A stretch of 32,000 nt of DNA from Promethearchaeum syntrophicum (GCF_008000775.2 NZ_CP042905.2:2880001-2912000), one strand, 5' to 3'; counted from the first letter of the stretch, positions 1,282-7,425 are shown. Program-made: numbers and translations. Notes: a model not told the origin generated them from the sequence alone.

Positions 1282-2466
1282 TTAGATCATATCAAATTTT
1301 CTGCCAATTTTCTCATAGATATCTAATGCATCTTGAATTTGCTCTTCAGTATGAGTAGCCATTAGAGAATTCCGTAATAATTCATCCCCTTCAGCAACTC
1401 CAGGAGCACGAACTGGATTCGAATATAATCCTTCTGCTAAGAGTTCCTTCCAGACTTTGAAAACTTTAAGTTCATCTCGTACATACACTGGAACTACAGG
1501 AGTTTCGCTTCCACCTGTTTCAAAACCCAACTTTCTTAAACCAGATTCGAATAAGCGCGCATTTGACATTACTTTCTTCCTCAAATCTTCACTTTTTTCT
1601 ATCAATTCAATCGCTTTAATAATTGCTGCAACTGCAGGTGGAAGAAGAGAAGCACTAAAAATGAAACTTCGTGCATGGTGTTGAATATAATTAGCCACAT
1701 CCTCAGTACTTACACAAAAACCTCCAATGGAAGCGAATGATTTTGAGAATGTGCCAACGACAAGATCAATCCGATCCATAAGACCAAAATGCCCTCCAAC
1801 ACCTTCACCGTGATCCCCTAGATACCCCACTCCATGGGCATCATCAATCATTAAACGAGCGCTATATTGCTCTGATAATTCAACTAATTCAGGTATTGGT
1901 GCTAAAGATCCTTCCATGCTAAAAACTCCATCACTAACAATAAGTTTACCTTTATTTGCAGGTATTGATTGAAGAACCCTTTCAAGATCTTCCATATTAT
2001 TATGTTTGTAAACTTTAGTTTCTGCATAGGATAAACGACATCCGTCCACGATCGATGCATGATTTAACGAATCAGAAATAATATAATCCCCCTTTGTAGC
2101 TAAACCAGAAATAACACCCAGATTAGTTTGATAACCAGTTGAAAAAGTAACTGCTGCTTCTTTTCCCATAAATTTCGCAAGTTTTTCTTCTAATTCCAAG
2201 TGGAGATCTAGAGTCCCATTTAGAAATCTGGAACCAGTGCACCCTGTTCCGTGATCTTTTAAGGCTTGACAGCCTGCTTTAATCATTTCGGGGCGGTTCG
2301 TTAGACCCATATAATTATTAGAACCAAACATGATTGTCGGTTTACCTTGAATTTGAGTTATTGGCCCTATGATTCCATCTGCAGGAATAAAATAAGGATA
2401 TAACCCCATCTTCTTTATTTCTTGCGGTAGAGTATATTTTTGAGCTTTTCTAAATAGTTTTTCCAT
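1282..2466 (-). CDS. PLP-dependent alpha-oxoamine synthase family enzyme (8-amino-7-oxononanoate synthase / 2-amino-3-ketobutyrate CoA ligase / serine palmitoyltransferase-like)
   Basis: The 394-aa ORF carries family blocks FGSNNYMGL, GTGCTGSRFLNGT, STGYQTNLG and DDAHGVG, plus the PLP-lysine motif GTFSKSF. The subfamily cannot be resolved by eye. Confidence 0.9.
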   Translation of the reverse strand: MEKLFRKAQKYTLPQEIKKMGLYPYFIPADGIIGPITQIQGKPTIMFGSNNYMGLTNRPEMIKAGCQALKDHGTGCTGSRFLNGTLDLHLELEEKLAKFMGKEAAVTFSTGYQTNLGVISGLATKGDYIISDSLNHASIVDGCRLSYAETKVYKHNNMEDLERVLQSIPANKGKLIVSDGVFSMEGSLAPIPELVELSEQYSARLMIDDAHGVGYLGDHGEGVGGHFGLMDRIDLVVGTFSKSFASIGGFCVSTEDVANYIQHHARSFIFSASLLPPAVAAIIKAIELIEKSEDLRKKVMSNARLFESGLRKLGFETGGSETPVVPVYVRDELKVFKVWKELLAEGLYSNPVRAPGVAEGDELLRNSLMATHTEEQIQDALDIYEKIGRKFDMI

Positions 2467-3947: not shown

Positions 3948-4061
3948 AAGATAATATAGTCATCGATTAATAAAAAAAATCCGATAAAAGATAATTTAGC
4001 AATAAAAAAGTTAATGTTATTTAATTGAAATTTGAAAGAAATTTGATATAACCGTAATGAG

Positions 4062-4068
4062 AGGAGGA
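4062..4068 (+). promoter_or_regulatory. Shine-Dalgarno-like GGAGGAG upstream of the 4077 start
   Basis: The sequence gaGGAGGAGaaaaaaaATG places a purine-rich SD-like element about 9 nt upstream of the ATG. This supports the chosen start. Confidence 0.45.
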
Positions 4069-4076
4069 GAAAAAAA

Positions 4077-5822
4077 ATGGATGAAAAAAATAGCACTGAA
4101 AACGAGTTGGAGGAGCCAACTTTAGAAGAAATGATAAGTGAGGAAGAAAACAAAGACAAGAAGAAAAAGAAGGGAAGAAGAAAATGGTTTTCCAGAAAAA
4201 GAGATCATGAACAAAATTACGATGAACAGGGAAATTATGTACCCAGAGAAAAACCCAGACATGGTTTATATTCTGATTATTACGGTCCGATGATTGAGGA
4301 TGAAAAAGGGAGAAAAGCCGGGAAATTCTTCTTTAAAGAATATAATTCCCTGGGTCGGCATCATTTTTTTGGAGAATTTTTAATTGTCTTAATATTCGGA
4401 ATTTTTTTCGCTTTTGGAGGTTACAACCTTTATTATATAGGAGGACCAATTCGAGATGCCTATGCTGAGTCTGGAATAGATATTACTGAATACTACGGAT
4501 ATTTAAAATATGGATTATATATAATATTAATAATTTTCGCTGTTTGGATTATTTCATTGGCTATTTCTTATTATATGGTAAAGATTTTTGGTAAAATTGC
4601 ACCTATTCTTATGTTTACCTTAGTTTTTCTGGAAATTGGATTATTAGTTCTTCTTTACTTAAATTTTGAATGGGAATATAATTGGATATTTATTTTATTA
4701 GTTATTCCAAACGTTCTCATGCTTACGCTCTGGTATAAGAAGTTCAAAAAAGCGATCCATATAGTGCGTATGAGCAGTATTGCGGTATCAAAACAGCGTG
4801 AAATTTTAGTACCTCAAATTACACAGACTTTATGGATTATATTCTTAAGTTTTTTTCACATAATTACAACGATTAATACTTTTTTTGAAATAACTCCAAT
4901 AACAGGTGCTACATTTGAAATTCGGGAAAGTACTTATGAAATCTCAAAAGGGTGGATTTTCTTCGCTTATTCATGTCTATTTGTCTTCTGTATTTTTGTA
5001 ATTTATTTCGTAAGTCAAGGAATGAAAATGCTTATGGTTCATAATTGGTATCGAGGGGGAGGATCTATGGGATTCTGGAAAGCATTCCATGTTATTCGAT
5101 ATAGGTGGTGGGGAATCATTGGGTATGCCTTTAGTTCAGCAATAATACATATGCTTCAATCTCTTAGAAAAATGATAAAAGGAGATTTCGGACCAAAAAA
5201 TGTCAAAGAATGCTTCACTCAAACAGGAGAACTTATTCCAACTCAAGTAAACGCCTTAAGAACCAAAAAAGGAACACCTTGGTATGAAAGAATTTGGATG
5301 AGTCTTAACTTCTATTCATTACCTTGTATTGTAATTGAGAATAGATTATATCATCAAGCATTGATTAGATCACTCTATTTAAGCATTAGAGATATTCCAA
5401 GCAGATATATAAAGAGATCTAAGGTGGATGTTCTATTTTATTTCATCAAATATGCATTAATAGTAATAAATGGCCTTGTGGGAGCATTATTCGGATATGG
5501 AATTGCACGATATTTCGATGTTTCGGGATATACTCGTTATGCTGTTGTAGGAATAACGATAATGGTATTTTTGTGGGTGGCCGGAGGCACTTCAACATTA
5601 ATTGTTAACGATTTAAATAATTCTTATATTACAATTCTCTTTATTCATACGATAGATGAGCTTAATAACAAGGAGTATTTTACGTTAAATGAATTGGGCA
5701 AGTTAAAGGGTGATACAACAATAACTGAAGTTGAAATGAAAGAAAAAAAACATAAATGGTATCAATTTAGAAAGAAGAAGAAAGAAAAGAAAGAAATGAA
5801 GAAAACCAATGAAGAGAAATAG
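4077..5822 (+). CDS. Multi-pass membrane protein with a possible choline-transporter-like (SLC44/CTL/Pns1-type) core and Lys/Glu-rich tails
   Basis: The 581-aa ORF has about 10 hydrophobic segments and charged low-complexity N- and C-termini. Residues ~215-535 show colinear motif similarity to the CTL family (see finding). The CDS call is solid. The family call is tentative. Confidence 0.8.
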   Translation: MDEKNSTENELEEPTLEEMISEEENKDKKKKKGRRKWFSRKRDHEQNYDEQGNYVPREKPRHGLYSDYYGPMIEDEKGRKAGKFFFKEYNSLGRHHFFGEFLIVLIFGIFFAFGGYNLYYIGGPIRDAYAESGIDITEYYGYLKYGLYIILIIFAVWIISLAISYYMVKIFGKIAPILMFTLVFLEIGLLVLLYLNFEWEYNWIFILLVIPNVLMLTLWYKKFKKAIHIVRMSSIAVSKQREILVPQITQTLWIIFLSFFHIITTINTFFEITPITGATFEIRESTYEISKGWIFFAYSCLFVFCIFVIYFVSQGMKMLMVHNWYRGGGSMGFWKAFHVIRYRWWGIIGYAFSSAIIHMLQSLRKMIKGDFGPKNVKECFTQTGELIPTQVNALRTKKGTPWYERIWMSLNFYSLPCIVIENRLYHQALIRSLYLSIRDIPSRYIKRSKVDVLFYFIKYALIVINGLVGALFGYGIARYFDVSGYTRYAVVGITIMVFLWVAGGTSTLIVNDLNNSYITILFIHTIDELNNKEYFTLNELGKLKGDTTITEVEMKEKKHKWYQFRKKKKEKKEMKKTNEEK

Positions 5823-6429: not shown

Positions 6430-7425
6430 ATGAGGAAACAGATAATGAAAGTACAATATAAAAAACTCGGTTGGTATCGAATTAAACTGACTCGAAAAAT
6501 ACGGAATCTTGAAGGAAAAGAATTAATTGATGCATTACAATCAGCTATTGAAGACATCCATAAAAAAGGATATGATAAATTTGGAGTGTTTAAGCATTTT
6601 GTTACCCAGATCGAACAAGAAATTCAAGAATTAAAATTTCGGCCCAAAGCCAAACCTCGGGAACATGATCCGTTTCTGATTAAACGATCAGGTGATGGAC
6701 GAATTGTTCTGTTTGGACTTTCTAATGTGGGAAAAAGCACTTTAATGAATGCAATCACGAATACCAATGTAAAAACGGGAAATTATCTCCATACTACCAA
6801 AACTGCATTAGGCGGTACTTGTGAATATAATCAAGTGAAAATACAAATTGTGGATGTACCTGGATTTGTAGATTATCGGGATGATTGGATGATTAGCAAG
6901 CAAATTCTCCGAGTAGCACGAACTTGCGATGCAATTTTGATGGTGATTGATTTATCCCAAAATGTTTCTAAACAATATCAGTTTCTTTTGAATCAATTGG
7001 AAAAAGCAAATTTAATGATTGATGGAGAAACTATGTATAAATTAGGGATTATTGCTTCCAAAGGGGATCTTCCAAAATCAAAAGACCAATTCATTAAACT
7101 GGAGCAAGAAAGTGAGTACCCGATACTCCCTATTTCAATTATAAATGAAGAGTCCTTAGAAAAAGCCAAGAAATTTCTATTTGACATGCTAGATGTAATC
7201 CGGATTTTTACAAAATCACCTAATAAAAAACCTGATTTAGAACACCCGATCATATGTGACTATGATACAACAGTTGAATATATTTCAAGTAAAATTCATA
7301 AGGATTTTCTAACTAGGTTTCATCATGCAAAAGTTTGGGGCAATTCAGTTGATTTTGATGGCCAACATGTTGGAAAGGATCATGTACTCTCTGATCTGGA
7401 TGTGGTTGAATTATTTAAAACGTAG
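6430..7425 (+). CDS. DRG/Rbg-type Obg-like GTPase with C-terminal TGS domain (compact variant)
   Basis: The pre-G1 and G1 region is PFLIKRSGDGRIVLFGLSNVGKSTLMNAIT. G3 is DVPGF and G4 is the variant SKGD. The C-terminal block IRIFTKSPNKKPDLEHPIICDYDTTVEYISSKIHKDFLTRFHHAKVWGNSVDFDGQHVGKDHVLSDLDVVELF matches the DRG TGS domain. Confidence 0.85.
   Translation: MRKQIMKVQYKKLGWYRIKLTRKIRNLEGKELIDALQSAIEDIHKKGYDKFGVFKHFVTQIEQEIQELKFRPKAKPREHDPFLIKRSGDGRIVLFGLSNVGKSTLMNAITNTNVKTGNYLHTTKTALGGTCEYNQVKIQIVDVPGFVDYRDDWMISKQILRVARTCDAILMVIDLSQNVSKQYQFLLNQLEKANLMIDGETMYKLGIIASKGDLPKSKDQFIKLEQESEYPILPISIINEESLEKAKKFLFDMLDVIRIFTKSPNKKPDLEHPIICDYDTTVEYISSKIHKDFLTRFHHAKVWGNSVDFDGQHVGKDHVLSDLDVVELFKT

Follow-up and report, generated by a model that had tools for sequence, protein, structure and literature searches.

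The 32,000-nt stretch of the Promethearchaeum syntrophicum genome analyzed here (GCF_008000775.2, NZ_CP042905.2:2880001-2912000; hereafter referred to as the window) carries at positions 4077-5822 on the plus strand a single open reading frame (ORF) of 581 codons plus stop codon, which starts with ATG. Its product and the close relatives thereof are named 'hypothetical protein' in public records. Profile comparisons, predicted fold and membrane topology indicate that the gene encodes a real polytopic membrane protein, which very probably represents a divergent long form, specific to the Lokiarchaeia, within the family known as choline transporter-like (CTL/SLC44/Pns1). A GGAGG ribosome-binding motif is located at 4063-4067, i.e. 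9 nt ahead of the ATG. It lies within an AT-rich intergenic region of 129 bp (3948..4076, delimited by sequence reading and ORF layout), which the gene has in common with a divergently transcribed 2TM/PadR gene pair and which we infer to act as promoter region. The gene is single-copy in the closed 4.32-Mb genome, and the G+C content of the window is ~31%. Searches retrieved 21 homologs of the protein at E-values of 1e-97 or better, and every one of these named homologs belongs to the Lokiarchaeia/Promethearchaeota, including a protein of Candidatus Lokiarchaeum ossiferum with 63% identity. Comparison with the ortholog from the same genus yielded a ratio of non-synonymous to synonymous substitution rates (dN/dS) of 0.14. 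Given these homologs and this ratio, the ORF is a real gene under selection.

To describe the architecture of the protein, we used an AlphaFold2 model calculated from a 22-sequence alignment without templates (mean predicted local distance difference test value (pLDDT) of 78; predicted template modeling score (pTM) of 0.77) in combination with hydropathy. Both reveal ten transmembrane (TM) helices, namely M1 (residues 97-120), M2 (146-170), M3 (173-196), M4 (203-217), M5 (242-270), M6 (291-322), M7 (344-367), M8 (402-419), M9 (449-479) and M10 (485-529). Three short, basic and strongly amphipathic helices, AH1 (220-239, between M4 and M5), AH2 (333-341, between M6 and M7) and AH3 (425-438, between M8 and M9), exhibit hydrophobic moments of 1.14, 1.93 and 1.04, respectively. 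According to the K/R-rich loops, these helices and both termini are predicted to be cytoplasmic. Residues 1-96 (4077..4364) constitute a cytoplasmic N-terminal extension composed of a disordered Glu/Lys-rich tail (residues 1-56; pLDDT <50 for residues 1-35) and a conserved mini-domain that includes a short beta hairpin (residues 57-96; pLDDT ~80 for residues 45-96), in which Y65, Y69 and F84 are conserved columns. The short CTL forms of other Asgard archaea begin at about residue 80-100 of the query. The following segment (residues 97-217; 4365..4727) comprises the peripheral helices M1 and M2 and the hairpin M3/M4 (helices 97-132, 136-196 and 203-217 in the model; hydropathy) and was aligned to residues 132-200 of yeast PNS1.

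The remainder of the membrane domain was likewise delimited by model and hydropathy. Residues 218-326 (4728..5054) contain AH1 with six K/R residues, M5, an external beta hairpin (278-289) and M6; residues 327-421 (5055..5339) contain AH2, M7, a conserved external loop of 34 residues and M8; and residues 422-529 (5340..5663) contain AH3, M9 and M10, supported in addition by alignments to the short Asgard forms and PNS1. The initial annotation, which already proposed a CTL-like multi-pass membrane protein at this position, had pointed out five ordered blocks resembling the CTL core. Blocks 1 and 2 lie in the first of these three segments, block 3 and the start of block 4 in the second, and the rest of block 4 and block 5 in the third. 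All five fall on equivalent CTL/PNS1 segments in the profile alignments described below, and the poly-Lys/Glu tails noted at both ends were also recovered. The C-terminal one, residues 530-581 (5664..5819), is Lys-rich (17 K+R in 52 residues), cytoplasmic by prediction, and predicted to be disordered and then helical (pLDDT <50 for residues 543-565). The same-genus ortholog (G141; L002 / L031:10098-11753 (+)) has 552 aa and ends ~29 residues earlier, and the genome search shows one in-frame TGA in the region matching the long tail. Thus, the length of the Lys-rich tail varies even inside the genus. Three AH-hairpin units are visible in the predicted secondary structure of the protein, and a threefold internal repeat was hinted at by the stretches KAIHIVR, KAFHVIR and QALIRSL in AH1-3. 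However, hhalign comparison of the three units gave <1%, the same as the control, and a repeat at the sequence level is not supported. Threefold pseudosymmetry, if present, would be structural only.

To place the protein, we compared four alignments, i.e. a family-specific profile (A1), a broad Lokiarchaeial profile (A2), a yeast PNS1 profile gathered by a search seeded with a 78-residue PNS1 stretch (A3) and a profile of the short Asgard forms of 460-510 aa (A4). Hhalign aligned A1 with A4 at 99.95% probability (E 4e-38) over 403 columns spanning M1-M10, and A4 with yeast PNS1 at 97.4% (E 1.6e-11) over 360 columns. The A4 hidden Markov model (HMM) also matched the window gene directly at E 1.3e-39. 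Direct comparison of A2 with A3 gave 74% (E 2.7e-5) over 300 colinear columns, aligning residues 152-480 of the query with residues 132-461 of PNS1, a value above the level of about 50% that the initial annotation had named as threshold. The yeast PNS1 profile in turn reaches human CTL1 at only 36.5 bits, and therefore the distance between Asgard and eukaryotic proteins is no greater than distances within the eukaryotes. Comparison of folds led to the same family. When the model was searched against the PDB with Foldseek, the top three matches were yeast PNS1 (9f63, E 5e-7) and human CTL1 (9qu3 and 7wwb), below which the list falls to TM-scores of ~0.1. CTL1 and PNS1 were the best structural matches by two independent aligners, and unrelated membrane families scored no better. 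The nearest clusters in the ESM Atlas are eukaryotic CTLs, and the model folds like the solved structures of CTL1 and PNS1. The combination of ten TM helices, three amphipathic helices and cytoplasmic termini (PMC13160678), as in CTL1 and PNS1, was found by model and hydropathy as well.

The homolog alignment identified invariant positions in M6 (K317, H322), the M8 segment (E404, R405, W407, N411, E421), the AH3/M9 segment (K446, G469, G473) and M10 (D512, N514, Y517, D527). K317 aligns with the pocket residue R296 of PNS1, H322 with PNS1 H300, and N411 with PNS1 N396 and CTL1 N497. Altogether, the alignment puts the invariant polar or charged residues K317, R405, N411, K446, R447, D451, D512 and N514 at or near pocket positions.

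Several observations weigh against this assignment or against transferring eukaryotic functions to the protein. A Pfam search with the window protein returned no match to PF04515 (Choline_transpo) even at E-values up to 10. Direct hhalign comparisons of the family with yeast reached only 32-74%, so that the sequence link depends on intermediates. Tyr394 of PNS1 (Tyr495 of CTL1), the sole pocket residue common to both proteins, is replaced by Ser409. The polar pocket floor that conserved charged residues of M6, M8, M9 and M10 would line (K317, E404/R405, N411, K446 and D512/N514) is positioned by alignment. No operon or neighbourhood conserved beyond the genus was found that would suggest a pathway. 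Finally, the notion of lipid binding is transferred from eukaryotic proteins working in membranes with ester lipids and sterols, whereas archaeal ether lipids are expected in this host.

The missing Pfam match deserves closer consideration. A six-frame search of the own genome gave no PF04515 match for the window gene, and searches of NCBIfam and of PDB sequences (phmmer with the window protein; A1 profile) returned nothing relevant; with the broader A2 profile, PNS1 was reached among PDB sequences only at E 0.87. The PF04515 profile covers 326 positions and has a curated gathering cut-off of 26.9 bits. This cut-off was passed over the whole profile by the relatives P0018 (39.8 bits; E 2e-116 to the query) and P0037 (41.3 bits; E 1e-22), and a further relative, P0041, scored 32.7 bits. 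Hence, the profile check suggested in the initial annotation failed for the window protein itself and succeeded for its relatives. We read this miss as reflecting the limited reach of the current HMM rather than as counter-evidence to homology, and treated the protein as a divergent subfamily, beyond the present Pfam model, within the homologous CTL family. Common ancestry with eukaryotic CTLs and an identical architecture appear nearly certain to us. The competing view that the resemblance arose by convergence of helical membrane bundles, the protein being a member of an unrelated prokaryotic family, is exceedingly improbable and already effectively refuted.

Comparison with known systems delineates what is particular to the long form. 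Pns1 of Saccharomyces cerevisiae (PDB 9F63), which represents the compact type of the CTL/SLC44 family (PF04515), is ~12% identical. Relative to Pns1, the window protein has an archaeal host, the 96-residue N-terminal extension with its conserved mini-domain, Lys/Glu-rich tails and the conserved 34-residue M7-M8 loop, while pocket residue Tyr394 is not kept. The M1-M2 loop is short in both proteins. With ~25 residues (121-145) it provides no extracellular domain in the window protein, which is therefore of the compact Pns1-like type. The large M1-M2 extracellular domain of the metazoan CTL1-5 subfamily, a glycosylated domain of ~150 residues in human CTL1/SLC44A1 (PDB 7WWB, 9QU3), is absent, as are the Cys-rich stretch before M8 and the lipid modifications of CTL1. 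The short Asgard CTLs are homologous over all ten helices and share with the long form the motif N-[YF]-[FY]-[TS]-L-P-x-I-V-I-E-N in M8. However, they pass PF04515 at 26-72 bits, and many of them also match DUF6159, DUF7544 or GPDPase_memb, often over their C-terminal halves, whereas the long form matches none of these. The long form is ~100 residues longer, and the N-terminal extension, the M7-M8 loop and the Lys-rich C-terminal tail are specific to it in the Lokiarchaeia. CysZ (PDB 3TX3, 6D9Z), a putative bacterial sulfate permease, differs in that it has six helices, is hexameric and adopts another membrane topology; sequence similarity to the window protein was not detectable.

DUF6159 (PF19656) is the counterpart of the CTL fold's AH1-M10 core and lacks M1-M4. 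The P. syntrophicum genome encodes a DUF6159 protein of 295 aa (99.7 bits; L035:1432-2319 (-) = G000:C1:2204800-2205687, ~680 kb before the window), which is matched by the A4 profile at E 9.5e-21 and looks like a free-standing six-helix CTL core. Comparison of A1 with this paralog gave 0.9%, which is not significant, and the window protein had no match to DUF6159 in the Pfam search. Judging from these profiles, the long form would be linked to DUF6159 only through the short Asgard forms. The data suggest a common superfamily for DUF6159 and Choline_transpo, and point to a wider prokaryotic superfamily with the six-helix core as its basis.

Next to its architecture, the distribution sets the long form apart. 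Full-length strong matches to the A1 profile occur only in the taxonomic family of P. syntrophicum, where 12 of 13 genomes have one, and in close relatives from the same order. PF04515, in contrast, yields matches above its cut-off in 100 of 400 Asgard genomes, representing 33 of 85 genera, and in none of the 13 genomes of that taxonomic family. Thus, the family as a whole is Asgard-wide, the window protein is part of a divergent branch of it that is specific to one lineage, and Pfam-based annotation understates the spread of the family. The initial annotation regarded the family as overwhelmingly eukaryotic; a PF04515-positive gene in a quarter of the sampled Asgard genomes contradicts this notion.

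Phylogenetic relationships were addressed by a careful maximum likelihood tree of 40 sequences and 499 columns (LG+C20+F+G4), which is unrooted and represents the eukaryotes by yeast and mammals only. Within this sampling, archaeal and eukaryotic sequences are separated with support of 100/100. The long form is a clade of its own (100/100) on a long branch, sister to a Lokiarchaeial form of 665 aa (92/87), and the two together connect to the short Asgard forms. Judged by these sequences, the tree argues against recent transfer from eukaryotes; it does not prove vertical descent.

Two candidates for an occurrence outside Asgard archaea were rejected. The metagenome-assembled genome (MAG) Bin_245, labeled 'Candidatus Bathyarchaeota archaeon' (L016, WJJB01000103.1; G401), equals G282 of the window's own Asgard order with identical contig, coordinates and score, and its NCBI label is probably wrong. 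The other is a 3.8-kb contig of a Bathyarchaeia MAG (L018:19-1893 (+), JBGOZA010000140.1) with an ORF of 625 aa scoring 56 bits with PF04515. The encoded protein nests among the short Asgard forms, as sister to one of them (100/99), and PF04515 was not found in 300 further genomes of this phylum. This ORF likely reflects a mis-binned contig or a recent transfer. The scan of the whole collection employed a single peptide pattern and is therefore of low sensitivity. In viral contigs, no relative of the window protein was found.

A sister genus and other Lokiarchaeial genera carry the CTL-like domain in larger proteins. In Candidatus Harpocratesius repetitus, a protein of 2037-2038 aa (P0022/P0051; L029:12969-19082 (-)) has the domain at its C-terminal end (residues ~1520-2024), fused to ~1500 N-terminal residues that contain repeats of the HEAT and Adaptin_N type (PF01602, 52.8 bits). 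Two genomes (L029, and L009 = G137) show this frame without interruption. In other Lokiarchaeial genera, N-terminal extensions of ~400-540 residues without Pfam match precede the domain, as exemplified by L010:1057-4251 (-) (G143, 1065 aa) and P0025 (907 aa). The Harpocratesius fusion gene is adjoined by a gene for a 1421-aa protein (L029:7815-12077 (-)) with Laminin_G_3, PKD and F5/8 type C domains. This protein also obtained a whole-protein score of 75.9 bits with Tymo_coat (tymovirus coat protein) in which no single stretch is significant, probably an artefact of repeats or composition.

Around the gene of interest, neighbours encoding an MFS protein, an alpha-oxoamine synthase, PadR and the 2TM protein are kept in the same genus only; none of the four was present beside the orthologs in L. 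ossiferum, Harpocratesius, G132 and CR_4. Deduction of a function from gene context was therefore rejected. A class I/II aminotransferase gene (1282-2466 (-)), which the initial annotation described as alpha-oxoamine synthase or serine-palmitoyltransferase-like, is located 1.6 kb from the CTL-like gene. A link to lipids is tempting, but the pairing is retained only within the genus. On the strand of the CTL-like gene and 600 bp downstream of it, 6430-7425 (+) encodes a DRG/Rbg-like GTPase that combines an MMR_HSR1 and a TGS domain; this gene was not found beside CTL-like orthologs of other genera.

What might the protein do? A structural and biochemical study from 2026 detected no choline transport by CTL proteins, observed densities resembling lipids and considered transport not to be compatible with the bowl-shaped fold (PMC13160678). 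A preprint of the same year reported phospholipids bound to CTL1 as well as simulations in which the membrane thinned and curved (bioRxiv 10.64898/2026.10.02.755950). With choline transport not reproduced, the molecular function of CTL/SLC44 proteins has been reopened, and the 'transporter' label used in the initial annotation is probably wrong. For the eukaryotic CTLs, whose activity is contested, these studies favor a role in binding lipids and organizing membranes, and by analogy such a role may apply here, too. The protein would form a bowl open to the outside, like CTL1 and PNS1, could bind the head group of a polar lipid or another amphiphile, and might thereby organize or deform the membrane around it. 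Its cytoplasmic tails rich in Lys and Glu, together with the conserved mini-domain at the N-terminus, could dock it to acidic membrane surfaces or cytoplasmic partners. A lipid-binding, membrane-organizing or anchoring role rather than choline carriage is the possibility that we tentatively favor, because CTL1 and PNS1 show no choline transport and carry lipid-like densities and bound phospholipids and because of the fusion to HEAT/Adaptin_N-type repeats. Alternatively, the protein could be a true secondary transporter or a channel for a small polar solute such as choline, ethanolamine, an organic cation or an anion, with the charged pocket as substrate site; for CysZ, anion transport has reportedly been proposed. 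We consider this rather unlikely, since both studies from 2026 lack choline transport by CTL1 and PNS1, the bowl-like fold was judged incompatible with alternating access, the pocket residues differ among the Asgard, yeast and human proteins, and the neighbouring genes provide no choline or ethanolamine pathway.

A different question is where the family came from. If the Asgard genes had been acquired from eukaryotes by horizontal transfer, they would be uninformative as to how the eukaryotic family originated. With yeast and mammals as the only eukaryotes in an unrooted tree, a transfer from eukaryotes at the base of Asgard is formally possible. However, archaea and eukaryotes are found on opposite sides of a long branch and no archaeal sequence is nested in the eukaryotes; PF04515 is spread over more than a third of the Asgard genera, with deep divergence into short, 665-aa and long forms; and the genes share the low G+C content of the host. 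Such a transfer is therefore very unlikely. A further scenario holds that the CTL family originated in Asgard archaea when M1-M4 were added to a six-helix DUF6159-like prokaryotic core, that the first eukaryotes inherited it vertically, and that the long form, with its basic cytoplasmic tails, serves as a membrane anchor recruiting solenoid scaffolds. At present this is speculative, and we regard it as improbable in its entirety.

The existence of CTL proteins in Asgard archaea is in part already documented. Short-form orthologs of Candidatus Heimdallarchaeum are named 'choline transporter-like family protein' (e.g. H. aukensis UJG41882.1), short-form relatives in Helarchaeota are named 'DUF6159 family protein', and an October 2026 preprint lists a CTL/PNS1-like cluster among Asgard-eukaryote clusters. 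The family is not mentioned in a 2021 survey of Asgard transporters (PMC7997004) or in the main text of a 2026 structural catalogue of eukaryotic signature proteins (PMC12962969). The window protein is thus a further, divergent instance of a family already labeled in other Asgard archaea.

Among the genomes sampled, few genes are common to Asgard archaea and eukaryotes, and the CTL family extends this list by a membrane protein. In humans, neurodegeneration, hearing loss, thrombosis and cancer have been linked to CTL/SLC44 proteins, and CTL-dependent roles in vesicle trafficking and autophagy are known from plants and fission yeast. If the scenario of an Asgard origin were true, the CTL family would count as a eukaryotic signature protein that organizes lipids and membranes, and the Lokiarchaeial long form with the HEAT/adaptin-type solenoid of Harpocratesius would be an archaeal forerunner of these trafficking and autophagy roles. 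The organisms harboring the long form are expected to lack sterols and choline lipids. A compact archaeal CTL without extracellular domain, glycosylation and lipid modifications offers a simple test object, and if lipid binding or membrane bending is retained in it, this would reveal the ancestral activity of the family.
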